A stretch of 57,912 nt of DNA from a bacterium (GTDB lineage: Bacteria > Patescibacteriota > Minisyncoccia > UBA6257 > 02-FULL-45-10c). The notes below the pieces were generated by a model that was not told the origin of the DNA, searched no databases, and was given only the letters and a program-made list of their open reading frames with translations. The position numbers and the translations under genes are program-made. Shown here piece by piece: positions 23,637-55,731 of this stretch (position 1 is the first letter of the stretch; each line of letters begins with the position of its first letter). Location: positions 1-57,912 of the forward strand of contig JAUYKI010000008.1 in assembly GCA_030700025.1 (NCBI GenBank), in the 5' to 3' direction.

Positions 23637-24301
23637 GACAAGCCCTTAAAATTTTCTTCTACTTCTTTCCAATTGACTACGTTCCACCAAGCGGCAATGT
23701 AGTCAGGCCGTTTATTCTGATATTTCAAATAATAAGCGTGTTCCCAAGCGTCTAGTCCTAGAATCGGTTTTAGTCCCTGTGAAATGGGAGAGTCTTGATT
23801 TGAGGTAGTCAAGATTGTTAGTTTCGAATTTCGGGCTTCGGATTTCGGATTTTCGGTGACTAGCCATGCCCAGCCGGATCCGAATATGCCAGAAGCGGCC
23901 GCGGTAAATTGTTCTTTAAATTTTTCAAAACTGCCAAAAGTTTTAGTAATGGCTTCGGCTAATGTTCCGGTTGGTATTCCGCCTTTCGATGGATTCGACA
24001 AGCTCGCCACGGGCTGGCTCAGGGCTGGAGAACATAAAGTTCTCCAGAAAAAAGAATGATTAAAATGCCCACCTCCGTGATTCCGAACCGCAGTCCGGAT
24101 TTCTTGCGGAATCGCGTCTAAATTAACGAGTAGTTCTTCCAATGATTTTTCTTGCAATTCTGGATATTTTTCCAAAGCCATATTTAATTTATCCACATAA
24201 GCTTGGTGGTGTTTAGCGTGGTGGATTTCCATAGTCCGGGCGTCAATAAACGGCTCTAGCGCGTCATAGGAATAAAGCAATTTGGGGAGTTCAAATTTCA
24301 T
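23633..24301 (-). CDS. sod: Fe/Mn superoxide dismutase
   Basis: [31 protein letters not shown] and C-terminal D.WEHAYYL.Y.N.RP.Y. Confidence 0.9.
23822..23856. repeat. Heptanucleotide tandem array (TTTCGRR-like, ~5 units) inside sod
   Basis: TTTCGAA TTTCGGG CTTCGGA TTTCGGA TTTTCGG, encoding [12 protein letters not shown]. Confidence 0.8.
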
Positions 24302-24331
24302 GTTATTATAATTATACTACGCTTAATTTCT

Positions 24332-24967
24332 ATGGAAAAGCTAACCGACATAAAACACCCCTGGAAACACCAGCAAATGGGCCAGAGGCCGCCCAGGGAA
24401 TCTATTTTTAAAAGATTTATAAAATGGTGCTGGAGTATCATAACCGCCCCCTTCCGGCTGATCTGGAGCTTAATCCGCGCTCTTTGGAATTTAATTACCC
24501 GCTTGCTTTCCGGCATTGTAACGGCAATCTCCGCGCTTTTCTCTAAATCAAAAAGCGGGGGATCGGCTATCGGGCGGGCCGTCAAAAACTTCGTAGCGTT
24601 CCTATGGCCGCGCAGCCAAGCCGGATGGATAATTTTACTTTTAACATTAGTTTTTTTGTGGCAAGTACTGACCTCTCTGGAATTTCCGTTGATTGATTCT
24701 AATAAATGGCAGGCGATAACCTTGAGCAATAACCAGGTTTATTTCGGCCGGCTCCAGGAAGTCAGCAATGAATACGCGACACTGAAAGATGTTTATTATC
24801 TCCAAGCGCCCTCCGGATCGCAAACCACCACTAATTTAGTAAAATTAAGCGAAAAAATCTACGGACCGGAAAATCAAATTTATATTCCAAAAGAACAAAT
24901 AGTCTTTTGGGAAAATCTCGGAGAAAATTCCCAAGTAATAAAAGCGATTGAACAGATTAGGAATTAG
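24332..24967 (+). CDS. Hypothetical membrane protein
   Basis: Several hydrophobic helices followed by an extracytoplasmic tail. The opposite-strand ORF 24298..24729 is judged spurious. Confidence 0.5.
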   Translation: MEKLTDIKHPWKHQQMGQRPPRESIFKRFIKWCWSIITAPFRLIWSLIRALWNLITRLLSGIVTAISALFSKSKSGGSAIGRAVKNFVAFLWPRSQAGWIILLLTLVFLWQVLTSLEFPLIDSNKWQAITLSNNQVYFGRLQEVSNEYATLKDVYYLQAPSGSQTTTNLVKLSEKIYGPENQIYIPKEQIVFWENLGENSQVIKAIEQIRN

Positions 24968-24979
24968 GAATTAGGAATT
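24956..24979. repeat. Heptanucleotide tandem array (ATTAGGA x3.5) at the convergent 3' ends of two genes
   Basis: ATTAGGA ATTAGGA ATTAGGA ATTT supplies the last codons and stops of both 24332..24967 (+) and fmt (-). Confidence 0.8.
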
Positions 24980-25835
24980 TATCTTGGTAGCCATTGAGAA
25001 AATCTTTCCAAGCCATCGGACTCTTGCCCTCCGGCTGAACCCTTTTTAATTCTAAATTCTCATTCTGAAAATCGGCCTCTAATAACTTAAGCTTAATTTC
25101 TTTTCCGTTTTTTAATTTTAGAATGGTGAAAACGCCCGGCTCTGGATTCAATGCCCGGATTTTCAACCAAACCTGCCGGGGCGGATCGTTTTTTAAATCC
25201 ACCAGCCCATCTGATAAAGAAAACTTTTTCGTAAAAGTGGCTTCGTTGTCATTTTGCGGCCGAGCTTTAATTTCGCCATTTAAAAACTTGGGCAAGGTTT
25301 CCACTAATAAGTTACCGCTTGATTCCGCTAGCTCTCTCATTAATTCTTCGTAACTTTGATTTTTGATTTTTGATTTTTGATTTTTTAAAATTGGCCCGTT
25401 ATCCACTTTTTCATCCATTAAATATAAAGAGGTTCCGGTTTCCGGCTCATCCTCCAGTATCGCGCTTTGAATAGGGGAAGCGCCGCGGTATTTCGGCAAA
25501 AGCGATGGGTGAACGCCGATTGTGCCCAACTTAGGAATGTCCAAAATATCTTTTTTAAGAATCTTAGAATAAGCGGCAACTATAAAAAAATCCGGTTTGT
25601 AATTTGTGATTTGTAATTTGTGATTTGCCAAAGTTTCTGGCTGTAAAACTTCAATATTATACTTTTCAGCCGTAACTTTGGCCGGCGGGGGAGTCATAAT
25701 CTTTTTTCGGCCGACCGGAGCGTCCGGAGAGCAAACTACCACTGCCGGAATAAAGCCCGCGGTGATTAATCTTTCTAAAATAATCTCCGCAAACTCCGGA
25801 GAACCAAAAAATACAAATCGTGGGTAATTGGTCAT
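24957..25835 (-). CDS. fmt: Methionyl-tRNA formyltransferase
   Basis: FFGSPEFA..IL..L.......VV..PD.P.GR......PP.K..A......V.QP, then HPSLLP.YRG..PIQ.AI. Confidence 0.85.
   Translation of the reverse strand: MTNYPRFVFFGSPEFAEIILERLITAGFIPAVVVCSPDAPVGRKKIMTPPPAKVTAEKYNIEVLQPETLANHKLQITNYKPDFFIVAAYSKILKKDILDIPKLGTIGVHPSLLPKYRGASPIQSAILEDEPETGTSLYLMDEKVDNGPILKNQKSKIKNQSYEELMRELAESSGNLLVETLPKFLNGEIKARPQNDNEATFTKKFSLSDGLVDLKNDPPRQVWLKIRALNPEPGVFTILKLKNGKEIKLKLLEADFQNENLELKRVQPEGKSPMAWKDFLNGYQDKFLIPNS
25355..25386. repeat. Heptanucleotide tandem array (unit GATTTTT, ~4 units) inside fmt
   Basis: TTTGATT x4, encoding KNQKSKIKNQ. Same unit as the gltX array at 35451. Confidence 0.85.
25596..25630. 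repeat. Heptanucleotide tandem array (TTTGTAA/TTTGTGA, 5 units) inside fmt
   Basis: TTTGTAA TTTGTGA TTTGTAA TTTGTGA TTTGCCA, encoding ANHKLQITNYKP. Confidence 0.85.
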
Positions 25836-26329
25836 TAGTTATTTGTTGCCTCGTGCTTCTTTACGTCCTTGCACCGGTCAATAAATAATTTGCCATTGAG
25901 ATGGTCCATTTCGTGCTGAAAAACCCGCGCTAACAGCCCCCAGGCCTTAATCTTTACCTTCTTATTATTTTGGTCCCAGCCGGTCAAAACTACCTTATCT
26001 GCCCGCTCTACCACTCCATAAGCAAGGGGAACGCTTAAACAACCCTCCTCCATAAGAACGGGGTCGCCGGACTCTTTAACCAGTTCCGGGTTAAAAATCG
26101 CGTAAAACTTCTTATCCGGTTGAGCCACGAACACTTTAAAATCCAGCCCGATCTGGTTGGCGCTTAATCCAATGCCGTTGGCTTTTTGCATGATTTCCCG
26201 CATTTTCTGAAGCAACTCCCGGATTTCTTTTTTGCTGTATTTGGCAAAATCAAACTTAACGGCCTTGCGCCTTAAAAACTTCTCTTCGCTTTTACTGTCA
26301 ATTGTCCAAAGATTCTCGTTAATAATCAT
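25835..26329 (-). CDS. def: Peptide deformylase
   Basis: GIGLSANQIG, EGCLSVP, HEMDHLNG. Confidence 0.9.
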   Translation of the reverse strand: MIINENLWTIDSKSEEKFLRRKAVKFDFAKYSKKEIRELLQKMREIMQKANGIGLSANQIGLDFKVFVAQPDKKFYAIFNPELVKESGDPVLMEEGCLSVPLAYGVVERADKVVLTGWDQNNKKVKIKAWGLLARVFQHEMDHLNGKLFIDRCKDVKKHEATNN

Positions 26330-26339
26330 CTTTGCTTTT

Positions 26340-26618
26340 TTAATTTTTTTTCTTCTTCAGCTCTTGAAGCATTCTCATAAAATAAGCGCCTTTGTTCTGG
26401 ATATTCGTCCGGTCAGCCAGGCCCTTTGCCAAAATAAGCAGCTTTTGAGCATCAAAAGATTTAGCTAGGCGCATATATAAAGACTTGTGCGACGGGTCGT
26501 TTAGAATTTCTGCCAGCATTAATCCAGTCATTTGATAAGGCTTATAAACGCGCGATTTCTTAGACCGCTCTTTCAAAAGTTCTAAGTATTTTTTGCTGTC
26601 TATTTTAAACTCTTCCAT
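26340..26618 (-). CDS. Hypothetical protein
   Basis: 92-aa basic helical protein. No motif recognised. Confidence 0.45.
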   Translation of the reverse strand: MEEFKIDSKKYLELLKERSKKSRVYKPYQMTGLMLAEILNDPSHKSLYMRLAKSFDAQKLLILAKGLADRTNIQNKGAYFMRMLQELKKKKN

Positions 26619-26675
26619 GCTTATAACTACTTAAGTTTATGTTATATTAAAAAGAAAGAAAAGAGATAAATATTT

Positions 26676-27245
26676 ATGAAAAAGGGGGCTCAAAGGCTTT
26701 TTATAGCCATTAATCTGCCTAACGACATTAAGAAAAAAATCGCGGAAGAAGTTGAAAAAATCCGGTATGAATTCTCCGGTGATATCCGCTTCTCCAATCC
26801 GGAAGACTGGTACATTACTTTAGTTTTCTTGGGAGACCAAAGCCGGGAGTTAATCGCCGACATTATTGATGCCGCCGAAAATACCGCGAATAATTTTCCC
26901 GCCCCAACCGTTCATTTGGAAAGCCTGACTTATGGGCCGTTGGGCAGAACGCCGAGAATGGTCTGGATCAATGGATCCGCGTCCGTTTCTAAAACATTGT
27001 CAGAAATCAAAAATTCTTTGGAGGACAACCTAGCCAATGCCGGAGTCAAGTTTAAGCAAGAATTTCGGGGATTTAAAGCTCATGTTACCTTAGCGAAATT
27101 TAACGCGGCCACCAGACAAGACTTGCCCGTAATTGAGAAAAAAATTGACTGGAAGTTTACCGCGGCTAGCGTTGACCTAATGGAGTCGCATCTCTCCAAA
27201 AATGAAGCGCCGTACGAAAAGCTGGCTGGCGCAGATTTCCTTTAG
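26676..27245 (+). CDS. 2H-phosphoesterase family protein (RNA 2',3'-cyclic phosphodiesterase ThpR/LigT-like)
   Basis: RLFIAINLP..., second HxT motif AHVTLAKF present. The first motif position reads WYITLVFLG (Tyr in place of His). Confidence 0.6.
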   Translation: MKKGAQRLFIAINLPNDIKKKIAEEVEKIRYEFSGDIRFSNPEDWYITLVFLGDQSRELIADIIDAAENTANNFPAPTVHLESLTYGPLGRTPRMVWINGSASVSKTLSEIKNSLEDNLANAGVKFKQEFRGFKAHVTLAKFNAATRQDLPVIEKKIDWKFTAASVDLMESHLSKNEAPYEKLAGADFL

Positions 27246-27264
27246 ATATTATTATTAAATAAAC

Positions 27265-28500
27265 ATGCTCAAGCTCAAACAACGCCTGCCGATAATCGCC
27301 ACAATTATTGCGGTTATTTTAGTTGGCGGGGGAGCTTATTACGCCGGCCTTGCTATTGGCGCCAGCCAATCGCGCGAGTTGATTATCCGAGGCGTCAGCG
27401 ACCTTGAGCCGGATCAGCAGATTTCCACTGACTTCAGCCTTTTCTGGGAAGCCTGGCAAAAACTAAAAGATAATCACATCCGGGGAGAACAGATTAAAGA
27501 CCAGGAGTTTCTTTACGGGGCGATCGCCGGCATTACCAATTCCCTAAAAGACCCCAACACCGTATTTTTTGAACCTGAAGACTCCAAAAAATTTGAAGAG
27601 GACGTAACCGGAAATTTTGGCGGCATTGGCGCCGAAATCGGAGTCCGCAACGAACAATTAGTTATTATCGCGCCCTTGGAAAACTCGCCGGCGGAAAAAG
27701 CCGGGTTGCTGGCTGGCGATAAAATCTTTGCCATTAATAATGAGGCGGCCGCAAAACTGGATGTAAACGAAGCAGTGAAAAAAATCCGCGGAGAAATTGG
27801 AACACAAGTTACCTTAACTATTGTAAGAAACGGGGAGGACAAACCGCGCGAAATCACCATTACCCGCGGAAAAATTGAAGTGCCAACCCTAAAACTCACT
27901 GTTAAAGAGGGGGGTATCGTTCACGTTCAATTATTCAGTTTTAATGAGAATGCGCCCTTTCTCTTCTACCGGGCAGCGCTTACCGCGCTTATGAGAAATG
28001 CCAACGGAATGGTGCTGGATTTGCGCAATAATCCGGGTGGATTTTTAGAAGTGGCGGTAAATCTGGCCGGCTGGTTCTTGGACAGGGGAGACATCGTAGC
28101 CATTGAAAAATTCCGAAGCGGAAAAGAAAATATTTTCCGGGCTAACGGCAATGGCGCTTTAAAGAAATTGCCTTTGGTAATTTTAATCAACAAGGGATCG
28201 GCGTCCGCGTCGGAAATTCTAGCTGGCGCCATCCGCGATAATAACGGGGTAAAATTAATCGGGGAAAAAAGCTTTGGAAAAGGAACGGTCCAGGAATTAT
28301 TTGACCTCAAGGATAATTCTAAGCTGAAAATAACAATCGCCAATTGGCTGATGCCCAAAGGCGAGACCATTGAACAAAACGGCCTTGCGCCGGACGTAGA
28401 AGTAAAAATAACCGAGGAAGATATTGAAGCTGAAAAAGACCCGCAATTGGAAAAAGCGCTGGAAATTTTGAAAGAAGAAATAAAAAAATACTCCGAATAA
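27265..28500 (+). CDS. ctp: S41 carboxy-terminal processing protease with PDZ domain
   Basis: GGIGAEIG, PDZ PAEKAGLLAGDKI, DLRNNPGG, LINKGSASASEILAGA. Confidence 0.85.
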   Translation: MLKLKQRLPIIATIIAVILVGGGAYYAGLAIGASQSRELIIRGVSDLEPDQQISTDFSLFWEAWQKLKDNHIRGEQIKDQEFLYGAIAGITNSLKDPNTVFFEPEDSKKFEEDVTGNFGGIGAEIGVRNEQLVIIAPLENSPAEKAGLLAGDKIFAINNEAAAKLDVNEAVKKIRGEIGTQVTLTIVRNGEDKPREITITRGKIEVPTLKLTVKEGGIVHVQLFSFNENAPFLFYRAALTALMRNANGMVLDLRNNPGGFLEVAVNLAGWFLDRGDIVAIEKFRSGKENIFRANGNGALKKLPLVILINKGSASASEILAGAIRDNNGVKLIGEKSFGKGTVQELFDLKDNSKLKITIANWLMPKGETIEQNGLAPDVEVKITEEDIEAEKDPQLEKALEILKEEIKKYSE

Positions 28501-28520
28501 CGGAGGATTTTTTATTTTAT

Positions 28521-28793
28521 TTATTGGATACTAACTACGGTGGCGTATCTTTGATTGCCGTCAAATCTTATTTTCTTAGTTTCTTTCATTCGGACCTTGC
28601 CGGTTTTCATGGCAAAAAGCGTGTCGTCTCCGCCTCGGCGGACATTTAAGCCCGGCAAATATTTCGTGCCTCTTTGGCGGATAATAATCTGGCCGATTGC
28701 CACAGCTTCACCGTGGTTTCTTTTAACGCCTAAGCGCTTAGAAGCCGACTCCCGAAGGTTTTTACTAGTACCCAGTGATTTTGTATGTGCCAT
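28521..28793 (-). CDS. rpmA: 50S ribosomal protein L27
   Basis: [42 protein letters not shown]...G.V. Confidence 0.9.
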
Positions 28794-28822
28794 AAATCTA
28801 TTTAATTGATAACTTTTAACTA

Positions 28823-29008
28823 ATGACTATTAAGAGAAATAGTATTACAATTTGCCCTATGCTGTCAACTCTCAAAAACTGGTTTAAGAACCGCTCGGTT
28901 ATCCTATTTTTGCTCCTATTTTTGCTTTGTTCTCTTAGCTTCGGCTTGGGGTATCTTTTGGCCCAGGAGGGGGATCGGGCGCCGATTATAATAGAAACCA
29001 ACCCGTAA
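28823..29008 (+). CDS. Small membrane protein
   Basis: One TM helix ([21 protein letters not shown]). The start codon is uncertain. Confidence 0.4.
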
Positions 29009-29081
29009 CTTGTAATAAGCCCTATTTAAGAGTATTCTCTTAAAAGACGCGCCTTAAAAACTTCTATACGAGGAGGGTAAA

Positions 29082-29684
29082 ATGCTAAAAGGGTTGTTTT
29101 TATTTTGCGTGGTAGGGCCATTAATGGCAGAATTTTCCGGATATTTTTGGCACCGCTTTATTTCTCACGTGGGAATTTTTAGCTGGCTGCCAAACGACTT
29201 TTTAAGGCGCCGGCACTTTCACCATCATGAAGAATATCCACTGCATAAAATACGGGATATAAGCTATGTTACATCCTGCGACATCACTTTTATTATAGCC
29301 GGATTCTTAACCTGTTTAATAGCTTTTGGCCTGGTTTTATTAAAAGCGATAACTTTATTAAGTTTTCTTTTGATCATAGCCGGTGGAATACTTTTCGGAA
29401 TAGCCATTGGCATTGTCCATGACTCATACCACATTAAATATCTGGAGCTGACAAAGCGCTGGCGATGGTTGTTTAAATTCCAATGGTTTAGAAAATATTA
29501 CGTTTGGGCGAGGCGCTGTCACGATATGCACCATGTTGTAAACGCCAACTATTTCGTAATTATTCCCGTGGATTGGTTTTTTAGAACTTTGGTAACTAAA
29601 AAGCCGGAGGCGCATGACGAGCTATTTCCCCGCTTTGACCCCGCGTTGATTAGTTCCTGCAAAAAACCCATGATCCGGCGCTGA
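29082..29684 (+). CDS. Fatty-acid hydroxylase/sterol desaturase superfamily membrane protein
   Basis: Histidine boxes HRFISH, HFHHH, HDSYH and HDMHH in a polytopic membrane protein. Confidence 0.5.
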   Translation: MLKGLFLFCVVGPLMAEFSGYFWHRFISHVGIFSWLPNDFLRRRHFHHHEEYPLHKIRDISYVTSCDITFIIAGFLTCLIAFGLVLLKAITLLSFLLIIAGGILFGIAIGIVHDSYHIKYLELTKRWRWLFKFQWFRKYYVWARRCHDMHHVVNANYFVIIPVDWFFRTLVTKKPEAHDELFPRFDPALISSCKKPMIRR

Positions 29685-29771
29685 TTTAATTTCAGCGCTT
29701 TTTAATTTGACGGCTGTTAAAAAATAAATTATATTCTGGAGGCAGTAAACGAGCCTAAAAGGAGGCAGCAA

Positions 29772-29996
29772 ATGGGATGGTTCGGCGGAAAAGGGACAAA
29801 CGAGCCGGAAGAAAAGCCACAGCAGTGCCGGGTGAAAGTATTAAATAATGATGGGAGGGTGCTTTTTGAAAAAGTAGCGCCAAAGGATAATATAAATTGG
29901 GATGGGGATAGCAGATATATTGAAATTGAAACGGGGGATGGAAGAGAGACAAATATCATGACTGGGCAGTATTTGGTGGTTATGGAGGATTTGTAA
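29772..29996 (+). CDS. Hypothetical small protein
   Basis: AAAGGAGG Shine-Dalgarno 7 nt upstream of the ATG. No motif. Confidence 0.55.
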   Translation: MGWFGGKGTNEPEEKPQQCRVKVLNNDGRVLFEKVAPKDNINWDGDSRYIEIETGDGRETNIMTGQYLVVMEDL

Positions 29997-30161
29997 GTGT
30001 CTCAATTACAGTTAGAGATGTTGCGAGACGCTAGCGTCTCAGCTGGCGTTAATTCCATTCCGGCCTGGATTTCCATCCTTGTAGTAGCCGTATTCTTAAC
30101 TTGGGCAACTTGGTATCTGACCAGGAAACTGGACCAGGAAGCCCGCGATTCCAAACCATAA
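29997..30161 (+). CDS. Possible small single-TM protein (54 aa, GTG start abutting the preceding stop)
   Basis: IPAWISILVVAVFLTWATWYL TM helix. Below the ORF-track cutoff. Confidence 0.3.
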   Translation: MSQLQLEMLRDASVSAGVNSIPAWISILVVAVFLTWATWYLTRKLDQEARDSKP

Positions 30162-30250
30162 ATTAAGTCAGGGCTTGTTTTTTAGAAAAAATAGGTTAAA
30201 ATAGATACGCTCTTTCAAATGATGGTTGCGAGAAATGCGGGAGGGAAAGA

Positions 30251-30520
30251 ATGGAAGACGTACTGCGCGGGAGGATAATTCGGGAAGCTTATCATCTGGG
30301 AAAGAAATTCGTTATGAAGCTGGACGACGGAAGCGAAGTAGTAATTGAAGAAAAAGGCGGTCCTGGCCTGCATGATGAATGGGATAACTGGACTGATGTC
30401 TCGCACCAGAAAGATGGCAAGGTTTTATCCAGCTGGAGACTGAAAGATGGCCGAGGAGATTTACCCAAGCCGCCGGACAATATGGACGGTACCGGAAAAC
30501 ATTTTCCTTCCGAATTTTAA
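30251..30520 (+). CDS. Hypothetical small protein
   Basis: GGGAGGGA Shine-Dalgarno upstream. No motif. Confidence 0.5.
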   Translation: MEDVLRGRIIREAYHLGKKFVMKLDDGSEVVIEEKGGPGLHDEWDNWTDVSHQKDGKVLSSWRLKDGRGDLPKPPDNMDGTGKHFPSEF

Positions 30521-30624
30521 TATTATATAACCTCGCTATGCGGGGTTTTTTATTTTTCTCTTTTCCAACAACCCAACCAAGAAGAAGGTTGGGTTTTATA
30601 AATCTAAATAAAAATAAAAGTGAA

Positions 30625-30768
30625 GCCATGCCACCTCTCCGAAACCCCCGCAGGCATTTGAGCTTGGTCCGCCGTTATCTTTGCGGAGCAACCGGCGGTC
30701 AAATGCCGAGGACTAAGCGAAGTGAGCCGCAGGAGCGAACTGAGCGGGTTGAGGAGAGGTGGCATGGC
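30625..30768. repeat. 144-nt GC-rich long hairpin element related to the arms of the 21787 element
   Basis: 16-bp terminal inverted repeat GCCATGCCACCTCTCC / GGAGAGGTGGCATGGC. Inner stems are GGCATTTGA/TCAAATGCC and CCGCCG/CGGCGG. Shares GCCGAGGACT.AGCG..GAGCGGG motifs with 21810..21830. Confidence 0.7.
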
Positions 30769-30784
30769 TGAGCGAGATGAAATA

Positions 30785-31549
30785 TTAAGAAAGATATCCA
30801 ACTTTCTTCAGCCAGCCCTCATTTTCCCATTCCCATAATTTTTTAGCGCTAAGAAAAGCCGAAAAATCATTTTTCCAGTAGGGGAATTCCTGCAATTCAG
30901 TGGCTCCTTGCAAATCTGACCATTCATGCTGGTCTTCCGCGCACAAAGACATTCTTCCTTTGCGAATTTTATTATTTCCGCCCTTGGGCCGCATAGTGGC
31001 TCCGCAAATATAGCAATTTTTAACCTGGTCTATCCGCAAGATCCAACGAGTCTGCAAAGTAGGGAAGTCCGGCAAAAGAGCTTCCATATAAGCCGAGGTT
31101 TGAAGGTTATAGTCGCGATAGATGGCCTGGGAGGTCTTTATATCCATAACCCCGAATTTACCGTTAAAAAGCGCGATTAAATCCACCGTGCCGGCATAAC
31201 GATGGTCTTTATGATGCACCCGCCGTTCTACCAGCTCCTTATTCACCTGCAGGCTATTACTGCTCAAAAACAGCTCAAAGGCGTCTATGGAAGGCTTGAT
31301 GTCCGGAGCCACTTCCGGAGCTTCGCCTAAAAGAATCTTTTCTACGGCCTCATGGACTTTCGTGCCTTCGGTGGCAGAAAGTTTAGCAACATCTTGGGCA
31401 GCTTTATAACTTTTTGCCGCGCCATAAAACATATAAAGCGCGGGCTTGGCTTTTATTTCAACTATTTTTGTGACACGGGGATACCATTTGCCATCAATGT
31501 CATAACCGCATGATTCTTTAAAATTTTCTTCGCTGGTAAAAAAATTCAT
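30785..31549 (-). CDS. PD-(D/E)XK nuclease superfamily protein (Cas4/RecB-exonuclease-like core) with an inserted Cys-containing segment
   Basis: GTKVHEAVE, YAGTVDLIAL..GKFGVMDIKTS, QTSAYMEAL fit the D..D/ExK..QxxxY pattern. Confidence 0.55.
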   Translation of the reverse strand: MNFFTSEENFKESCGYDIDGKWYPRVTKIVEIKAKPALYMFYGAAKSYKAAQDVAKLSATEGTKVHEAVEKILLGEAPEVAPDIKPSIDAFELFLSSNSLQVNKELVERRVHHKDHRYAGTVDLIALFNGKFGVMDIKTSQAIYRDYNLQTSAYMEALLPDFPTLQTRWILRIDQVKNCYICGATMRPKGGNNKIRKGRMSLCAEDQHEWSDLQGATELQEFPYWKNDFSAFLSAKKLWEWENEGWLKKVGYLS

Positions 31550-31620
31550 TATTTTAGGATAAGTTCTAATAATGATAACTTAAAACAAATTAAAAAACAA
31601 AAGAGCGGTTTAACCCGCTC

Positions 31621-32439: not shown

Positions 32440-32645
32440 TACCGCCTCCTTTAGTTATTCTTTAGTTATGAATGAGCAAACTGGTACTAGAATAGCCAAA
32501 AATTAACGAGTAGTCAATCTGCGTTAGTAGGGAATACAGAAAACCAGCCCAACTTTCCCAAGCTTACCTGTCGCACATTATATCTTTTATGACACTTACC
32601 TATACGTATTCTAGATTCCAGATATTAGCTTCTAAATACTAATTT

Positions 32646-32906: not shown

Positions 32907-32930
32907 ACTTTAAGTATACTAGATACTTAG

Positions 32931-32972
32931 CCACTAGCCACTAGCCACTAGTCACTAGTCACTAGTCGCTAA
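32931..32972. repeat. Intergenic heptanucleotide tandem array (CCACTAG x3, TCACTAG x2, TCGCTAA)
   Basis: Read directly. Six consecutive 7-nt units. Confidence 0.9.
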
Positions 32973-32973
32973 A

Positions 32974-34239
32974 TTAGAGATAATCTTCGGGGCTAATAAC
33001 TACGCCAACCGGCACCAAACCGGCAGCTGGAGAAATTGATTTCAAAAGAATGCTGGGAGTCCAATAAACCCCAAAGTGCAGATGCGGACCGGTTGCATAG
33101 CCGGTATTGCCGACATATCCGATTAAATCTCCGCGCTTCACCATACTGCCGACAGCCACTATTTGCTTGGAAAGATGCGCGTAAAGCGTGGATAAATTAT
33201 TATTGTGTTCAATTAAAACATATTTTCCGTACTGATATTTTTTCCAGGAACTGACATCGTTATTATCTACCGCTCGTACTTTGCCGTCTTCGGCCGCGAA
33301 TACCGGAGTGCCGATAGGCGCTCCGCCGATATCCAAGCCGTTATGCGGCTTTCCGCGATAAAGATATGACTGCTCGCCGAAATGCTGAGTAATATAAGCA
33401 GTACCGCCGTCTTTTTTAAGCTTAACCGGCCAGGCAAAAACCCCGGGCCTTTTACTCGGCAAAAGACTTGGGTCAAACGAAGCCCGCAATGTATCTTCAA
33501 TTTTCGCGATCTGGTCCGAAATAGCGTCTTGCTGTTTTTCCAACTCACTAATTAGGGATTGATAGGTTTTTTCCTGATTTTTCGTCTGCGTTAAAAGCGA
33601 TTGCCGGTCTTTTTTCTGGCTTTCAGTTAGAACTTTCCGATTGGCCAAATTCCTGTTTTCCAGCTCTAGTTTTTGTTTTTTAGCCGCTGCCGTATCCAGC
33701 TTATTATTCAAATCGCCATTAAGTATTTGAAGCTCGCCCAATTCTTCCGACAATCCGACATTAACATTAAAAATATTTTGGACTTCGGACACGCTGGCGG
33801 CCAAGCTTTTATATTTTAAAAGCGTAATTAAAACCGCGTCTTTATCTTTTTGCTGCAGTTCCCGCAAAAGTCCGGCTATGGCTCCCCGCTTCAAATTGAT
33901 TTGAAGCTCGGTTTCATTAACGTCGTATTGCAAAGCCTCAATTTCCAACTTAGTCCGGTCAATATTTATAACGCTGGATTTTATTAATAAGCTAAGCTGG
34001 CCGATGCTGGAATCAAAACGCTTTATTTCTTGATTTAAAGTTTTGCCCTTATCCACTGTGGCTTCCAAATCTTTTTGGGCCTGTTGAATTTTCAGATTTA
34101 CCTCTTGCAAAGACTTATTTTGCTCATCAATGGCCTGGCGTAATTCTTCCAGAGTGGCGGCAAAAGCGTTAGAAATAGAAAATAGAAAATAGAAAGTAGA
34201 GAGCAGAAACGCCAAACCAATTAAAATTGTTTTAAACAT
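32974..34239 (-). CDS. M23 family metallopeptidase with a long N-terminal coiled coil (EnvC-like)
   Basis: HNGLDIG......V.A...G.V, and C-terminal GYVGNTGYATGPHLHF. Confidence 0.85.
   Translation of the reverse strand: MFKTILIGLAFLLSTFYFLFSISNAFAATLEELRQAIDEQNKSLQEVNLKIQQAQKDLEATVDKGKTLNQEIKRFDSSIGQLSLLIKSSVINIDRTKLEIEALQYDVNETELQINLKRGAIAGLLRELQQKDKDAVLITLLKYKSLAASVSEVQNIFNVNVGLSEELGELQILNGDLNNKLDTAAAKKQKLELENRNLANRKVLTESQKKDRQSLLTQTKNQEKTYQSLISELEKQQDAISDQIAKIEDTLRASFDPSLLPSKRPGVFAWPVKLKKDGGTAYITQHFGEQSYLYRGKPHNGLDIGGAPIGTPVFAAEDGKVRAVDNNDVSSWKKYQYGKYVLIEHNNNLSTLYAHLSKQIVAVGSMVKRGDLIGYVGNTGYATGPHLHFGVYWTPSILLKSISPAAGLVPVGVVISPEDYL
34171..34210. repeat. Heptanucleotide tandem array (AGAAAAT-like, ~6 units) in the signal-peptide region of the M23 gene
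   Basis: AGAAAT AGAAAAT AGAAAAT AGAAAGT AGAGAGC AGAAAC, encoding LSTFYFLFSISNA. Confidence 0.75.
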
Positions 34240-34240
34240 A

Positions 34241-34275
34241 ATTCTAGATTCTAGTTATTAGATTCTAGTTTCTGA
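34241..34275. repeat. Heptanucleotide tandem array (ATTCTAG-like, 5 units) spanning the gltX 3' end and the intergenic gap
   Basis: ATTCTAG ATTCTAG TTATTAG ATTCTAG TTTCTGA. Confidence 0.8.
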
Positions 34276-35717
34276 AGCGCTATATCCAGCCTTCTAAGCG
34301 ATTCGTCTTTTCCTAAAATATCCATTATTTCAAACGGTCCGGGCGATTTATCCTTTCCCGATAAGGCTGCCCGCATAGGCCACAATACCTCTCCCCTGCC
34401 CCGAGTATCTGCCCACGGCATAAGCTTCGCCTCTAAATTGGCTTTATCAAATTCGTCCAATAAAAAGCCTTTTAAAATTTCTCGCGCCACCCGCAAATTT
34501 TCCATAATCCGCTCCGGCTCCGTATTTTTCCAAATTAAAAGCGATGGGTCATAATCCGGCAACTCAAAAAAGAAATTATTAATATCTTTGAATTCATCTA
34601 ATTTGCTTATTCTTTCCCGAGAAGAAGCAATCAGCTTTCGAGTCAGGGGCAAATTCCCAAATTCTTCTCCAAAAATTTCTTTTATTATCTCGAGTAAACG
34701 GCCTTCATCGGCAGTCTTAATATATTGGGCGTTCAGCCAATTTAATTTCTCCACGTTAAACACCGCTCCGGATTTTTGCGCGCGGGATAAATCAAAATTC
34801 TGGATTAATTCTTCTTCGCTTAAAATTTCCCGGTCATCGGATAAATGCCAGCCCAACAAAGCGATAAAATTCATCAGCGCCTCCGGCAAATAGCCGGCTT
34901 TGCGGTATTCTTCCAAAGAAGTCGCGGAATAACGCTTAGACATTTTACTGCGGTCCGGATCCAGAATCAAAGGCAAGTGGGCATAAACCGGCGTCGAAAA
35001 TCCCAACGCTCGCTGAAGCAAAATTTGCTTAGGCGTATTGGCAATGTGGTCTTCACCCCGGATTACGTGGCTGATTTTCATTTCAAAGTCGTCTATCACT
35101 ACGGCAAAATTATACAAAGGTACTCGCAAACCCTTGGCAATCGCTAAATCTCCGAATAATGAGGTATCAAAAACAATATCGCCCCGGATAAGATCGGAAA
35201 ACTGGACTTTTTCTTCCGGAATAATAAATCGGATTACTTGGGCATCGGCTTCGGAAACTTTCCGGCTTCGGCACTTGCCGCTGTACTTCGGGGCAATGCC
35301 TCTTTCTGATTGCTCGTTTCTTTCTTTTTCTAGTTCTTCTTTAGTACAAGAACAATAATAAGCGTCGCCTTTTTCTAAAAGCTGTTTTAAATATTTTTCA
35401 TAAATATCCAACCTTTCCGATTGCCTATACGGCCCGTATTTACCAGCGTAATTTTGATTTTTGATTTTTGATTTTTGATTTTGAGCGTCAGCGATTGGTC
35501 CTTCGTCCCACTCCAAGCCAAGCCACCGTAAACCGCTAATAATATCTTTTTCCCACTTAACTTCCGACCGTTCAAGATCAGTATCTTCAATCCGCAAAAT
35601 AAACTTACCGCCGATATGCCGGGCAAAAAGCCAGTTAAACAAGGCCGTTCTGGCAGTGCCAATATGCAACGCCCCGGTTGGCGACGGCGCAATTCTTACT
35701 CTGATATTATTAGTCAT
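34251..35717 (-). CDS. gltX: Glutamyl-tRNA synthetase
   Basis: RIAPSPTGALHIGTARTALFNWLFAR (HIGH), KMSKR, class I GluRS layout. Confidence 0.9.
   Translation of the reverse strand: MTNNIRVRIAPSPTGALHIGTARTALFNWLFARHIGGKFILRIEDTDLERSEVKWEKDIISGLRWLGLEWDEGPIADAQNQKSKIKNQNYAGKYGPYRQSERLDIYEKYLKQLLEKGDAYYCSCTKEELEKERNEQSERGIAPKYSGKCRSRKVSEADAQVIRFIIPEEKVQFSDLIRGDIVFDTSLFGDLAIAKGLRVPLYNFAVVIDDFEMKISHVIRGEDHIANTPKQILLQRALGFSTPVYAHLPLILDPDRSKMSKRYSATSLEEYRKAGYLPEALMNFIALLGWHLSDDREILSEEELIQNFDLSRAQKSGAVFNVEKLNWLNAQYIKTADEGRLLEIIKEIFGEEFGNLPLTRKLIASSRERISKLDEFKDINNFFFELPDYDPSLLIWKNTEPERIMENLRVAREILKGFLLDEFDKANLEAKLMPWADTRGRGEVLWPMRAALSGKDKSPGPFEIMDILGKDESLRRLDIALQKLESNN
35451..35484. repeat. Heptanucleotide tandem array (unit GATTTTT, ~5 units) inside gltX
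   Basis: ATTTTG ATTTTTG ATTTTTG ATTTTTG ATTTTGA, encoding AQNQKSKIKNQNY. Confidence 0.85.
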
Positions 35718-42224: not shown

Positions 42225-43748
42225 ATGAAAAAACTCGCTCTTCTTTTAACTATCTTAATTATAGCTTCCTTTTTACGGCTCTACAATTTAACCGACCTGC
42301 CTCCGGGCCTGTATCCGGACGAGGCCATGAACGGCAACAATGCCCTGGAGGCGCGGGCAACCGGCCATTGGAAGGTATTCTATCCAGAAAACAACGGCCG
42401 AGAGGGGCTATTTATTAACATCCAGGGCCTTTTCCTGGCAGTCTTGGGCAACCAGCCATGGGCATTACGCCTGCCCAGCGCTATTTTCGGCATTTTAACG
42501 GTTTTGGGCATTTACTTCTTAACTAAAGAGCTTTTCCAGGAATGGCCCAAAAAGGACCTGGGATTCAAGATGTCCAGGGCAGAAAAACTCGCGCTCTTAG
42601 CCGCCTTTTTTATTGCCGTCAGTTTTTGGCATATTAATTTTTCCCGCATCGGCTTTCGGGCAATTATGGCGCCGCTTTTATTGACCTGGGGAATTTATCT
42701 TTTAATCCGCGCCTTCCGCAAACCGCATTGGTTCGCGCCGATTATTGCCGGTTTTATTTACGGGCTCGGCCTCCATACTTATATCGCCTACCGCGCCACT
42801 CCATTGTTAATAGTCATTTGTTTTTGGTTAATGGTTCGGAAGTATGGCTGGGAACCGGTTTTGAGAATCGGTTTTATTTTTACGGTTATTGCTTTTTTAA
42901 CTTTTCTGCCCTTGGGATTATATTTCTGGGAAAATCCGGCGGAATTTTTCGGAAGAACGACCCAAGTTTCTGTTTTTAACTCCCCTGCTCCGCTAAAAAA
43001 TCTTGGAGAAAATATTTTGAAAACCGCGGGGATGTTTAATTTTTCCGGCGACTGGAATTGGCGGCATAATATCGCCGGACGGCCACTTCTGTTTTGGCCG
43101 GTAGGAATTTTATTTCTGGTAAGTATTTTTTATGGGGTTTATTTAGTGTTCAGGGGTTTTATAATTTCTAATTTGCGATCTCTAATTTCTAAGCAAATCC
43201 CCAACCCCGATAATAACAATCGCCAAAATTTCATAATTTTATTAGCTTGGCTTGTGATAGCCGGGTTGCCGGTAATAGTTTCCAATGAGGGCCTGCCCCA
43301 TGCCCTGCGGGCAATTTTGATGGCCCCGCCGGTGTTTATCATAGCGGCCTTCGGCGGAATAAGCGCTTACGAATTTTTAAAACAGCATTGGAGCCGAAGC
43401 TCGTCCGTCATTGGTTGTTTATTTGTCGCTGTCCTAGTTGTGGAATCTTTTTATTCTTATTTTATAACCTGGGGCAAAAATCCGAATGTCCAGGGAGCAT
43501 TCAGCGCCGATTACATTCAAATCGGCCGGACCTTAAACTCATTGCCGAAAGAACTGCCTAAATACGTGGTTATTCAAGCCGGAGGCGGTTTGGTTCGGGG
43601 AATTCCGATGCCCAGCCAGACGGTAATGTTTATAACCGACAGCTTCACTTCCGAAAAACAGAAAACCAAAAATATAACTTATTTATTGCCCGGGCAAGAA
43701 AATCAAATTCCGGCCAACGAAAAAAATTATATTGCTTATATAAAATAA
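42225..43748 (+). CDS. GT39/ArnT-like (PMT_2) membrane glycosyltransferase
   Basis: N-terminal LPPGLYPDEA loop motif after TM1, and many TM helices. Confidence 0.7.
   Translation: MKKLALLLTILIIASFLRLYNLTDLPPGLYPDEAMNGNNALEARATGHWKVFYPENNGREGLFINIQGLFLAVLGNQPWALRLPSAIFGILTVLGIYFLTKELFQEWPKKDLGFKMSRAEKLALLAAFFIAVSFWHINFSRIGFRAIMAPLLLTWGIYLLIRAFRKPHWFAPIIAGFIYGLGLHTYIAYRATPLLIVICFWLMVRKYGWEPVLRIGFIFTVIAFLTFLPLGLYFWENPAEFFGRTTQVSVFNSPAPLKNLGENILKTAGMFNFSGDWNWRHNIAGRPLLFWPVGILFLVSIFYGVYLVFRGFIISNLRSLISKQIPNPDNNNRQNFIILLAWLVIAGLPVIVSNEGLPHALRAILMAPPVFIIAAFGGISAYEFLKQHWSRSSSVIGCLFVAVLVVESFYSYFITWGKNPNVQGAFSADYIQIGRTLNSLPKELPKYVVIQAGGGLVRGIPMPSQTVMFITDSFTSEKQKTKNITYLLPGQENQIPANEKNYIAYIK
43163..43192. 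repeat. Heptanucleotide tandem array (AATTTCT-like) inside the GT39 gene
   Basis: AATTTCT AATTTGC GATCTCT AATTTCT, encoding IISNLRSLISK. Same unit as the alr array. Confidence 0.75.
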
Positions 43749-43798: not shown

Positions 43799-43857
43799 CA
43801 AAGGTTCAAAAGAACAAAGGGCTAGGCCCAAAGTTCCAAGAACCAAAGTTCAAAGAG
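43799..43857. repeat. Low-complexity 7-8-nt periodic array (CAAAG-containing units)
   Basis: CAAAGGT TCAAAAGA ACAAAGG ... CCAAAGT TCAAAGA, read directly. Confidence 0.6.
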
Positions 43858-50263: not shown

Positions 50264-50269
50264 AAAAAT

Positions 50270-50608: not shown

Positions 50609-50669
50609 GTACTTAATGTTATAAAAAACACCCCCCAACTTTCGTTGAGGGGTTCGGGATAAACCCGAG

Positions 50670-50900: not shown

Positions 50901-50946
50901 TGATTGCCTCCTTGGAAGGTTAAATGCCGTTTAAGGATCTATAAGT

Positions 50947-50975
50947 ATTATACTCTATAATTCGCCTTTTGTCAA
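50947..50975 (-). promoter_or_regulatory. Consensus sigma70 promoter for 50670..50900
   Basis: Minus strand TTGACA, 17 nt, TATAAT. Flanks resemble the 50580 promoter (AAGTAC[CT]TGACA). Confidence 0.5.
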
Positions 50976-51377
50976 GTACCTAAGGGTATCCTCCGGGATC
51001 TCAATCCGCGCCCCTTTCGGACTAATCCCCGGATAACGCCACACCGAAATTATTTTAATTTTACCCGTTTTGGAATTTGAAATTTGGGATTTGGGATTTG
51101 CTTGCTTAACGGCAAGCTGGTACATCACCCACAGCTCTTCCCGCCCACTTCTACCGAATGGGCGAGGCTCGCCCGCCTTTGGCGAGGCGGCTTTCCCCGG
51201 CCTATCATTCCGCTTCATTACTGCCACGGTTCGCGGAGCAATTCCCTCTTCTTTACGGTCATGAGTTTTTAAAATCGTTTTTATTTTTTGCGGCATAATC
51301 CGATACTGAAGCATTTTGTGCTTAGAGTGGTCGGTCCAGATATATTCCGAATCGTTTTTTGGAAACTTGAATAACAT
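50955..51377 (-). CDS. Hypothetical protein (weak DUF4258-like N-terminus) with low-complexity inserts
   Basis: WTDHSKHKMLQYRI....I..IL. The rest contains a GC-rich Pro/Gly insert and a heptamer array. Confidence 0.4.
   Translation of the reverse strand: MLFKFPKNDSEYIWTDHSKHKMLQYRIMPQKIKTILKTHDRKEEGIAPRTVAVMKRNDRPGKAASPKAGEPRPFGRSGREELWVMYQLAVKQANPKSQISNSKTGKIKIISVWRYPGISPKGARIEIPEDTLRYLTKGEL
51068..51102. repeat. Heptanucleotide tandem array (ATTTGGG-like, 5 units) inside 50955..51377
   Basis: TTTTGGA ATTTGAA ATTTGGG ATTTGGG ATTTGCT, encoding ANPKSQISNSKT. Confidence 0.8.
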
Positions 51378-51396
51378 ACCTGTATAATAATATCAT

Positions 51397-53229: not shown

Positions 53230-53280
53230 AATTTGAGGTAAAATAACAGGAATCTTTGATAATCCCACAAGGAGAAAGCC

Positions 53281-53796: not shown

Positions 53797-53805
53797 TCGG
53801 GGTTT

Positions 53806-54585
53806 TTAATTTTTATAGTAAATCCGATTATCTATCCGCAAATCTACATAATCAATTTTCCGCAGATCAAGCGTTTCAAAAAGTTTCTGAAAAGATTCAA
53901 TATTAGGCGCCGGGTCAAACCGGATGCTGAATAAAATATCCGAGCCCTCGTAAGTTTCCACCCTTAATTCCTGAAGCTTGCGGTCCAGGCCTATTTTTCG
54001 GATTGCTACATCCAATTTGCCCAAGTTTTTCAAAATACCGGTTAAATTATTAATAAACCGCTCTTCAATGACCGGAAAGCCTAGCCGGAGATCAGCAGTC
54101 TGCAAATCGTAAACTTTCAAAATTAATGAGCCTTCGGTAGCCGGCGCTTCTTCAAAAACAACGCCATCGCTATCCAGCCAATAGCAATTCTCTCCCTCAA
54201 CACACCAGATGCCCAAGCGCTCCCGCTCTTGAACCGTAATATTGATGGACCGCTTCAGCCAGTCTTTTTCAATCGTGGCGCCGGCCAGCGCCGTGCCGGT
54301 TAAAGCCACGTCGCCCCTCTGCCAGGCCAAAAAATTATTCCAGCTGAAAAAACTGGAAATCGGCCCCCGTAAAACTTGCGGTTTTAAAATCGCCAAAGCG
54401 GTTTCCGCGCTAACACGGCGATTACCCGTTACCGCGAAGCTATCCACCTTAAAAATCGGGGAAAAAACCAAAACGTAAACAAAAACAGTAAAAACAAAAA
54501 ATAATCCCGCGGCGGATAAATAAACCCGGATTCTGATTTTTCTCCGTTTCTTTAATAAAGAGTCTTGGTCAAAATATGCCTGCAT
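53806..54585 (-). CDS. ftsQ: Cell division protein FtsQ-like (TM plus POTRA)
   Basis: N-terminal TM helix then FKVDSFAVTGNRRVSAETALAIL (POTRA start). Lies next to alr in a cell-wall context. Confidence 0.6.
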   Translation of the reverse strand: MQAYFDQDSLLKKRRKIRIRVYLSAAGLFFVFTVFVYVLVFSPIFKVDSFAVTGNRRVSAETALAILKPQVLRGPISSFFSWNNFLAWQRGDVALTGTALAGATIEKDWLKRSINITVQERERLGIWCVEGENCYWLDSDGVVFEEAPATEGSLILKVYDLQTADLRLGFPVIEERFINNLTGILKNLGKLDVAIRKIGLDRKLQELRVETYEGSDILFSIRFDPAPNIESFQKLFETLDLRKIDYVDLRIDNRIYYKN

Positions 54586-54606
54586 TGATTTAGGGCCCGT
54601 AACCGC

Positions 54607-55731
54607 CTAAACCACAATTCTATCTATCAGGGGGTTTATGCGGGTTACAATTTCATAATGGCTGGTATTAGCCTTCTGGGCAACCTCCGATGCCGAAATC
54701 CCCTTGCCCCGCTGTGAGCCGATGATTGTTGCCCGATCGCCCGCCTTACAGCTAATTCCGGTTATATCCACCACGATTAAGTCCATAGAAATCCTGCCCA
54801 AAACCCGCGCCCGCCTGCCGTTAATTAAAACCTCGCCCATTCCGGAGAGATTCCGGGGAAATCCATGCCAATAGCCAATCGGCAAAACCGCCATTTTCCC
54901 AACGCGGGTAACTCGTTCTATTAGATCATAACCGATAAATTGCCCCTCCTGGATATTCTTTATTTCGCTAAGATAGGTGTGCCAAGACAAAACCGGCCTC
55001 AGCGCAACCCGATGGCATTGCATTTCCAGCTCCTTAGACGGCCAAAGGCCATGCAATCCAATACCGATTCTGACCGCGTCCAAATGATAGCGGGGGTTCA
55101 TTAAAGTTCCGCCGGTAGCAGACGCGTGCCTTACGAAATTACGGAAACCCGCTTTTTCCAGTAAAGAAATAGCTTTTTTAAATTCTTTAAATTGTAAATC
55201 AGTATAAGTGGGATAATTTAAATCCTTAGCGGAAGCAAAATGGGTATAGACGCCTGTCAGGCAATTTCTAATTTCTAATTTCAAATTTCTAATTTTCCGA
55301 ATTACTGGCGGGAGGTCTTTTAAATAAAATCCCTGGCGGTGCATGCCGGTATCAATTTTAAAATGGAACTTGGGTTTGATTTTGCTCTTAATCCAATTAT
55401 CCAAAGCGAATGTGCTGGAAATAGTTACCGTCAAATCGCGCTTGCCGGCCAATTTTAAAAAGCCCGGCAAAGTCGGCCCTAAAATTAAAATCGGCTTGGT
55501 AATCCCCGCATCCCTTAACTTCAAACCTTCAATTATTTCATCTACGCAAAAACCGTCCGCGCCAAAGCTGTCCATCATCTTAGAAAATTCCTCTAACCCG
55601 TGGCCATAAGCATTGGACTTAACTACGGCCCATAACTTTACCCTTGGTTTTAATAATGAACGAAAAAGCCGGTAATTATGGGCAGCGGACTTTTGATTTA
55701 TCTCCACCCAAGTTTTACAATTTTTCAACAT
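54607..55731 (-). CDS. alr: Alanine racemase
   Basis: AVVKSNAYGHG PLP-lysine motif, and C-terminal GY..... with RISMD. Confidence 0.9.
   Translation of the reverse strand: MLKNCKTWVEINQKSAAHNYRLFRSLLKPRVKLWAVVKSNAYGHGLEEFSKMMDSFGADGFCVDEIIEGLKLRDAGITKPILILGPTLPGFLKLAGKRDLTVTISSTFALDNWIKSKIKPKFHFKIDTGMHRQGFYLKDLPPVIRKIRNLKLEIRNCLTGVYTHFASAKDLNYPTYTDLQFKEFKKAISLLEKAGFRNFVRHASATGGTLMNPRYHLDAVRIGIGLHGLWPSKELEMQCHRVALRPVLSWHTYLSEIKNIQEGQFIGYDLIERVTRVGKMAVLPIGYWHGFPRNLSGMGEVLINGRRARVLGRISMDLIVVDITGISCKAGDRATIIGSQRGKGISASEVAQKANTSHYEIVTRINPLIDRIVV
55263..55297. repeat. Heptanucleotide tandem array (AATTTCT, 5 units) inside alr
   Basis: AATTTCT AATTTCT AATTTCA AATTTCT AATTTTC, encoding IRKIRNLKLEIRN. 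Confidence 0.85.

Follow-up and report, generated by a model that had tools for sequence, protein, structure and literature searches.

Tandem repeats should be purged from the coding DNA of essential genes if their unit length is not divisible by three, as every slip of one unit is then a frameshift. Here we report that they are common in such genes in the 57,912-nt contig JAUYKI010000008.1 of GenBank assembly GCA_030700025.1 (the window, meaning this whole stretch at its full length), which carries short tandem arrays of 7-nt units within genes that include gltX, fmt, alr and sod. The arrays exist, are at least partly inherited in place among relatives, change their units in concert and are filtered by selection. 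On balance we think it probable that they are AT-rich heptanucleotide microsatellites that pervade a clade of Parcubacteria, its housekeeping genes included, with slippage or conversion maintaining their uniformity and selection acting as a filter.

The host belongs to the Parcubacteria/Patescibacteria (candidate phyla radiation, CPR), and a cyanobacterial origin, which the known heptamer repeats of cyanobacteria had suggested, is rejected. Among the matches listed, the best named relatives of its GltX and Fmt proteins are all Patescibacteria, from the uncultured Harrisonbacteria, Paceibacterota, Wolfebacteria, Zambryskibacteria, Liptonbacteria and Jorgensenbacteria, and the window holds housekeeping genes typical of CPR genomes (murG, ftsW, gltX, an M23 peptidase gene, def, fmt, sod, alr, serS, aspS and PMT-type glycosyltransferase genes). 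Relatives are referred to below by our own L and P numbers.

Period-7 arrays as a discrete class

Tandem Repeats Finder (TRF) detects eleven period-7 arrays in the window, starting at positions 23822, 24956, 25355, 25596, 32928, 34173, 34241, 35452, 43158, 51069 and 55263. Each has 3.4-5.4 copies, at 67-100% matches. Eight of the eleven lie within intact open reading frames (ORFs), which are uninterrupted and encode the expected Pfam domains. When periods 2-15 were scanned under one scoring rule, period 7 gave six arrays, period 14 gave five, period 5 gave one (ACTTT, 4.2 copies at 8622) and the remaining periods gave none, with about zero arrays expected at each period from 30 first-order Markov shuffles. 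Exact period-7 runs form a separate population (9-24) beyond the short background common to all periods, and the arrays are therefore a discrete class rather than the tail of a chance distribution.

A first-pass annotation, made from the sequence alone, had described at least eleven arrays of 4-6 units. TRF arrives at the same total, and the array sequences, peptides and gene assignments that the annotation quoted proved correct on re-reading; what changes is the membership at the margin. At 43799..43857 (no strand assigned), between the GT39 gene and ORF 43881-44486, there is no clean 7-nt array: irregular CAAAG-type repeats are spaced 7-8 nt apart, and TRF reports only a 15-nt period with 1.9 copies at 43828-43856, making this a doubtful member. 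The weakest member, at 67% matches, is a degenerate AATTTCT array in the gene for a GT39/PMT_2 membrane protein (43158..43192, plus strand), where it encodes residues 313-323 (IISNLRSLISK).

That the arrays are artefacts of assembly or sequencing is hardly credible. It is true that graphs built from short reads come apart at the identical 31-nt arrays of fmt and gltX, as seen in contig L099 (Logan, run SRR13727534), which was separately assembled from reads that may be the window's own, is 100% identical to window positions 25359-35476 and ends exactly within these two (CAAAAAT)n arrays. An assembly graph of 31-mers would be expected to end in this way at a shared repeat. L099 nevertheless reproduces four arrays with the same sequence, contigs of relatives from unrelated projects (Logan, JGI, ENA, NCBI) carry arrays at the same sites, and the host ORFs are intact. 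The arrays are not the error of one particular assembler. An exact-protein look-up of GltX returned no match, and one of Def matched the same genome only (L099).

There is a practical side to these repeats: arrays that share a unit fragment short-read assemblies, and the low-complexity peptides they encode can mislead homology searches. KNQKSKIK is a case of the latter, as our Fmt-based search of genome contigs was dominated by low-complexity matches to this string; L001 and L002 came from the matches listed.

Same sites in diverged relatives

Orthologs at 53-77% protein identity carry heptamer arrays at the gltX loop, at both fmt sites, in alr and in the spacer after the M23 peptidase gene. 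The gltX loop array (35451..35484, minus strand) consists in the window of 33 nt of the sense unit CAAAAAT and encodes QNQKSKIKNQN between the motifs WDEGP and GPYRQ. Five lineages (58-69% GltX identity to the window) have an array in the same place and register between homologous flanks, built of different units whose register opens on CAA: CAAAGTT / AAAAGTT over 33 nt in L009 and L092/L093, CAATTAC over 36 nt in L090, CAATTT(C/T) over 36 nt in L091, and CAAAGGT, as judged from the peptide, in P0012. Between the window and L009 the same two unit positions differ in all five copies. Because the differing positions are identical in every copy, this is a concerted change and not the product of independent substitutions.

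Both internal sites of fmt tell a similar story. Site 1 (25355..25386, minus strand) is a perfect array of the sense unit AAAAATC with 4.4 copies that encodes KNQKSKIKNQ; the same array, likewise perfect, recurs in L094 (76% identity) as (AAAAATC)4.6, L097 has (AAATTAC)4.7 in the same register, and L002 has an array with a 14-nt period. Site 2 (25596..25630, minus strand) has the sense unit TCACAAA/TTACAAA and encodes ANHKLQITNYKP. It spans 14 codons between QPE and DF in the window, L095, L097, L094 and L001, with ACAAAT(C/T)-type units in the first three of these, TTAGAAA in L094 and TTGGAAA in L001; the last two share the boundary unit TTGGCGA, and their other units are one base apart. Across 24 Fmt orthologs (53-76% identity), most have array-type peptides at one or both sites, and most have one at site 2. 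The first-pass annotation had named orthologs from distant lineages with equivalent residues in non-repetitive DNA as an observation that would tell against it: such DNA is found in L001 and L095 at fmt site 1 and in homologs in the PDB, and many other orthologs carry arrays at the very sites.

The alr array (55263..55297, minus strand; sense unit AGAAATT, 4.7 copies; peptide IRKIRNLKLEIRN) has a counterpart in L092, where copies of CAAGTAT stand at the aligned site, with seven more residues than in the window. The L092 array (19500-19570) is split by a GC-rich block of 21 nt, equal to three units, CCATGCCTACCGGCAGGCAGG; this block does not look like decayed array.

Arrays at gene borders are shared in part. 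Directly after the M23 peptidase stop codon lies a spacer array (32928..32972, no strand assigned) of about six copies of CTAGTGA/CTAGTGG in the M23 sense, with stops in all frames of both strands; L095 has a degenerate four-unit array with the same start, TAGCGACTAG, as the window, and L008 has none. The segment encoding the M23 signal/transmembrane region contains a T-rich array (34171..34210, minus strand; sense unit TTTTCTA) that specifies a hydrophobic peptide; here L009 has a degenerate stretch with 7/14-nt periodicity and L008 is non-repetitive. At the gltX/M23 junction, an array of sense unit CTAGAAT (34241..34275, no strand assigned) provides the last gltX codons, the stop and the M23 5' leader; L009 has 2.6 copies of AAAATGA there and L008 none. 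The array at the convergent end of fmt and ORF 24332-24967 (24956..24979, no strand assigned; ATTAGGA, 3.4 copies) lies in the overlap of the two genes, and, as the first-pass annotation had recognized, supplies both stops: TAG at 24965-24967 on the plus strand and TAA at 24957-24959 on the minus strand. It also encodes the last residues of Fmt (FLIPNS). The C-terminal tail of Fmt is identical in P0130, and L094 and L095 keep the convergent overlap without the array.

Variation in length is seen between species, as 33- versus 36-nt arrays and as differences of 7 aa. L092 and L093 share 13 kb without single nucleotide polymorphisms, and all heptamer arrays in that stretch are identical. The sole difference between these two contigs, which come from different samples, is a single extra or missing copy of an in-frame 24-nt repeat (L092 21235-21258) in a PMT_2 glycosyltransferase gene.

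At least some of the arrays are old, because relatives separated by deep divergence have them at orthologous sites, some sharing one register. The comparison of sequences shows that these are long-lived and at least partly inherited in place, and not recent insertions.

Insertion and replacement in the host proteins

The arrays had been described in the first-pass annotation as in-frame insertions, expected to fall in surface loops. This description suits SOD and GltX and does not suit Fmt; in alr the net gain is small. The sod array (23822..23856, minus strand) has about five copies of the sense unit TCCGAAA and encodes a 12-residue peptide in a hairpin after WAWLV, adding 7 aa relative to Mn-SODs in the PDB and 6 aa relative to the L094 ortholog, which lacks the array. 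The alr array overlies a helix/loop segment, with a net gain of 3-4 residues over solved structures. In gltX the array lies in a lineage-variable loop between WDEGP and GPYRQ, a loop that is absent from L008, the closest relative, and from L095. At both fmt sites the encoded residues align one for one with native sequence of solved Fmt structures, with zero net gain.

We built an AlphaFold2 model of Fmt on 24 orthologs (mean predicted local distance difference test, pLDDT, 90.8). In it site 2 forms the helix 69-78 and site 1 the strand 149-156, with pLDDT values of about 89-96 in these blocks; the array-encoded C-terminal tail alone is disordered (pLDDT 45). As modelled, then, repeat-encoded sequence is tolerated even within the structured parts of an enzyme such as Fmt.

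Two further ideas were discarded. Truncation of Fmt by the stop-bearing array is ruled out by parcubacterial orthologs of similar length. A rule that protein length differences are always multiples of 7 aa holds when SOD is compared with homologs in the PDB and when alr is compared between L092 and the window, and fails for the Fmt of P0139 (about 12-15 aa).

Separately from its array, sod has a second lineage-specific insertion of 13 residues (residues 88-101, at about 23998-24037, minus strand), which is GC-rich, contains no heptamer array and is not present in L094 or in PDB homologs.

Footprints of selection

Translation through a heptamer array passes over its unit in each of the three frames, and the unit must therefore be stop-free on the sense strand if the array is to lie within a gene. 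Across 49 arrays from Parcubacteria loci, the sense unit is stop-free in 21 of 30 genic arrays, and 11 of 19 intergenic units have stops on both strands. The three units of the window with stops on both strands (ATTAGGA, CCACTAG and ATTCTAG) are located solely at the ends of genes, which take their stop codons from them.

Where the prevailing unit of a genic array does contain a stop, the variant copy is the one that would put it in frame. In alr one variant copy, TGAAATT, turns an in-frame TAG into TTG. In L094, fmt site 2 has TTTGAAA in place of TTAGAAA in the very copy in which TAG would be in frame; in the gltX arrays of L009 and L092 (AAGTTAA), TCA and TAC stand exactly in the TAA phase; and in the GT39 gene altered middle units remove an in-frame TAA. 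Such stop-breaking copies separate a homogenising drive at the DNA level from selection at the protein level.

The hydropathy of the peptides follows the composition of the sense strand. A-rich sense arrays encode hydrophilic peptides (mean hydropathy -0.8 to -2.6) that form surface segments, and the two T-rich sense arrays fall in a signal peptide (+1.7) and a membrane protein (+0.6). Taken together, the sequences show a DNA-level tendency toward uniform arrays that is opposed by selection on the protein. It had been thought unusual that all eight intragenic arrays keep the frame. They do, but purifying selection on essential genes guarantees as much, and the point is trivial where length is unchanged.

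Census of array length, composition and units

The 49 arrays come from a census of 203 kb of Parcubacteria loci, with a detection threshold that admits 17 nt. Thirty lie in ORFs (about 60%) and 19 between genes. Lengths have a sharp peak, with more than half (27) of the arrays at 30-35 nt both in genes and in spacers; 46 have units with 0-2 G or C, and an A3-5T core is found in most. The 49 arrays fall into 30 unit classes, at least eight of which occur in the window alone.

The recurrence of one unit in unrelated genes had been put forward as an argument against local slippage. The units do match as cyclic permutations (fmt site 1 with gltX, GT39 with alr), but the numbers do not support the argument: two of 55 pairs in the window share a unit, where about one is expected, and unrelated arrays of different genomes share units in 1.9% of pairs. 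A preference for copying units within a genome, considered in view of an enrichment of 7.6% versus 1.9% of pairs, was dismissed, as it derives mostly from one cluster in L091, which has about 15 heptamer arrays in 21 kb, five of them of AAAATTG. L091 also contains a second, distinct repeat family with ACGCAGACT-type units and 10/21-nt periods in many arrays (132-192, 2793-2933, 4074-4137, 21075-21217 and others).

Heptamers are also prominent outside this group. In about 1 Mb of control loci, mostly from unrelated bacteria, period 7 was the commonest TRF period, mostly with 3.6-5.4 copies and sometimes within long ORFs. These loci came from a GltX-alignment search of metagenome contigs, in which relatives among the matches listed have at most 53% identity. 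Arrays of about 4-5 copies occur in unrelated phyla at GC contents of 36-66% (L005, L007 1063-1094, L042 and L040), some of them within long ORFs, and similar arrays were seen in one Bacteroidales metagenome-assembled genome (MAG). Ten arrays, the same unit AAAATCA among them, were counted over 18 kb of L005 (4238-16481), a MAG of the Gammaproteobacteria.

Origin and maintenance of the arrays

We propose that slipped-strand mispairing or intra-array conversion, acting in a 7-nt register, would create arrays in AT-rich sequence with AAAT-core units and keep them uniform, such that a changed unit spreads through all copies. Low-melting sequence of the AAAT type would favour this homogenising process, and arrays would settle at about 4.5 units (30-35 nt). 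As the footprints of selection show, only frame-preserving states and stop-free unit orientations survive within genes, and arrays with stops on both strands are restricted to spacers and gene ends, where they can supply stop codons. No function of the arrays themselves would be needed. As a one-unit slip would be lethal, turnover in essential genes must use 21-nt steps (three units, 7 aa) or length-neutral conversion. The 7-aa gains in SOD and in alr (L092 versus the window) fit the former; the latter is matched by the gltX and fmt arrays that differ in unit and agree in length.

Several observations sit poorly with this proposal. It has to invoke the rarer 21-nt steps or conversion in gltX, fmt and alr, and persistence in register across 53-69% protein identity seems long for a neutral repeat sustained by drive alone. 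It accounts neither for the 7-nt unit nor for the stop at about 32 nt; the first-pass annotation was right that no mechanism for a preference for 7 nt is established, a speculative idea of polymerase slippage being all that the literature searched offers. Array types at fmt site 2 do not track overall protein similarity, in that the window and L094 are closest and have different types. Four sites can be compared in the closest relative, the syntenic L008 (nucleotide identity about 84%), and all four are without an array. A clean deletion between GGACC and GGGCC has taken out its gltX loop, non-repetitive sequence stands at the remaining three, and no decayed remnants were recognised at the four, a poor fit to simple inheritance. 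The distribution within the window is uneven as well, with no heptamer array detected by TRF in 1-23.8 kb versus 11 in the next 31.5 kb; all 11 lie within 23.8-55.3 kb, and the other 26 kb of the window has none. Lastly, all 11 codons of fmt site 1 are identical between the window and L094, against 56% of third positions elsewhere, and all 11 array codons of gltX are identical between L009 and L092, against 49%. These two pairs were picked for their matching peptides, and other pairs differ at 2-4 of the 7 unit positions; constraint at the nucleotide level is possible.

Such points leave some room, though we think it unlikely, for a clade-specific process or function with a 7-nt register and a reach of about 32 nt, in which case the arrays would not be passive microsatellites. 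It may be an activity of replication or repair in which short tracts are rewritten by templating at a 7-nt offset with length unchanged, or a nucleic-acid element recognised by its periodicity and not its sequence. If true, it would account for sites in essential genes that hold on to periodicity, register and length though their units and peptides change, and also for the absence of arrays from a close relative. More doubtful is the idea that the arrays are selected DNA or RNA elements (a binding platform, a pause site or an insulator with stops in all frames), in which selection would maintain the periodicity and the length of about 32 nt, with the peptides as by-products. The gltX loop would agree with it, keeping periodicity, register and length while the peptides differ wholly (QNQKSKIKNQN, QVQSSKLKVKS, ELPITNHQLPKK and EFTISNFQFSNK), as would the two pairs identical at all synonymous positions, the first bases retained by L095 after M23, and a length mode of 30-35 nt that is alike in genes and spacers. 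Yet units vary by site and lineage and share AT-richness alone, hence no common recognition motif; the sites are structurally unrelated (mid-gene, signal peptide, gene ends); L008 does without all four comparable arrays; mean unit divergence over all pairs (2-4 of 7 positions) is about that of the whole genes; and no Rfam family matches.

The first-pass annotation spoke of insertion in frame, which we take to mean that a small cassette, mobile or templated, was copied into the genes from a common source in the manner of Rickettsia palindromic elements; this strikes us as decidedly improbable. Identical units do recur in unrelated genes of one genome (fmt/gltX, alr/GT39), both fmt sites of L097 share a unit, L091 has its five AAAATTG arrays, array size is narrow, and orthologs have a shorter SOD, GltX loop and Fmt tail. 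On the other hand fmt shows no net insertion and alr mostly replacement; orthologous sites hold different units in the same register, which points to descent in place; unit sharing in two of 55 pairs is close to what the repertoire predicts from the 1.9% background; array flanks lack target duplications and terminal motifs; and one window contains at least eight different units. It is very improbable that the arrays are contingency loci whose 7-nt slips switch genes on and off for population heterogeneity, even though non-triplet repeats in ORFs are the classical architecture of such switches and some arrays lie at gene starts or ends. The hosts gltX, fmt, alr and sod are single-copy essential or housekeeping genes for which an off state would be lethal or costly, the arrays are short (about 4.5 units), and those of L092 and L093 are identical over 13 kb although the 24-nt repeat differs.

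Relation to known repeat systems

Tandem heptamers in several unit families per genome are known in cyanobacteria as short tandemly repeated repetitive (STRR) sequences, with the units CCCCAGT, TTGGTCA and CAACAGT in Calothrix and Nostoc. The arrays described here resemble STRR sequences in both respects but differ in the phylum of the host and in their AT-rich units, and none of the three STRR units was found in tandem here. Rickettsia palindromic elements, in turn, are mobile palindromes of 100-150 bp that form true in-frame insertions in protein genes at surface-exposed positions. The likeness lies in repetitive DNA tolerated in frame in housekeeping genes; unlike these elements, the present arrays are direct repeats of about 32 nt, often replace residues and are inherited in place. 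Looking for the marks of such elements, we found no net insertion in fmt, direct repeats only and no flank motifs.

The known class to which the arrays belong is that of heptanucleotide long simple sequence repeats (LSSRs). In many bacteria no other long class is as common as the heptamers, for which slippage tied to the footprint of the polymerase has been proposed as the source (Mrazek, Guo & Shah 2007, as cited in PMC4679880 and PMC4692102). Going by these citing accounts, the likeness is close: head-to-tail 7-nt units, many arrays with differing units, numbers beyond chance, dominance of heptamers and suspected slippage. The surveys, as so cited, found LSSRs to be mainly intergenic, with coding repeats in multiples of three, whereas here 8 of 11 arrays (window) and 30 of 49 (census) lie in ORFs. 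Conservation of sites between distant relatives, unit change across whole arrays and occurrence in essential genes likewise set the present arrays apart from the LSSRs surveyed, so far as the citing papers describe them.

In Xanthomonas and Nostoc, heptamers prefer four units (PMC4692102); the repeats concerned, GGGAATC and GGGGA(T/C)T, number about four units, sit in the same intergenic places in related species and vary in sequence and length (PMC4692102). GGGAATC and GGGGATT never occur in tandem here, and the tract of three to four G per unit is lacking, as units hold 0-2 G or C. Because of this composition, a preference for about four units is not explicable in the present arrays by G-quadruplexes, which have been invoked for Xanthomonas, and in AT-rich arrays the size preference is thus independent of such structures. 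The TAACTGA repeats of marine Beggiatoaceae come in 2-6 copies and have forward stops in all frames, such that they end ORFs, with few reverse copies read through within ORFs (PMC4679880). A single unit dominates there and mostly lies immediately before start codons or, where in ORFs, at protein termini (PMC4679880), in contrast to the many units and mid-gene positions seen here; the window has no tandem TAACTGA.

According to the literature, no detailed study of heptameric repeats existed as of 2015, and we found no paper linking them to Patescibacteria. Nor did we find descriptions of heavy in-frame occupation of CPR housekeeping genes, of deep site conservation with concerted unit turnover, or of replacement of structured protein segments. 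The excess of heptamers and the preference for about 4-5 units, noted in 1990 and 2007, still lack an explanation, and the arrays offer a natural system in which to study both.

Other features of the window

The remaining genic array lies in ORF 50955-51377 (140 aa, unannotated) at 51068..51102 on the minus strand, with the sense unit CCCAAAT/TCCAAAT and the peptide ANPKSQISNSKT; an ortholog of this ORF was not found among the relatives' loci retrieved.

Restriction-modification genes and low-GC stretches are found in the first 18 kb of the window. Positions 1-23800 look in part accessory (GC 34-37%, a transfer RNA (tRNA) gene for Gln at 12611), with a DpnI-like gene at 4149-4928, a HaeII-like endonuclease gene at 15089-16156 and a C5 methylase gene at 16134-17147. 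Ordinary genes at 19.5-21.8 kb (DEAD helicase, Obg) are likewise free of arrays. The Rfam scan of the window found one tRNA and otherwise no family match.

Within the first 9 kb, a perfect palindrome, CAACATTCCAACATTC-TGCA-GAATGTTGGAATGTTG, at 7085-7120 has tandem 8-mers within both arms and recurs in intergenic spacers at 1095-1114, 6481-6508 and 8974-9009; the 8-mer GAATGTTG occurs 14 times versus 1.85 expected. These palindromes, unrelated to the heptamer arrays, could be a family of terminator-like or repetitive extragenic palindromic (REP)-like hairpins, or an operator.

A 776-aa homolog of TraG/VirD4-like coupling proteins (DUF87, T4SS-DNA_transf) is encoded at 39472-41802 of the window and at 1354-3681 of L090. 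The gene is syntenic in at least two Parcubacteria, with genes for an amidohydrolase, ftsW, murG and gltX as neighbours.

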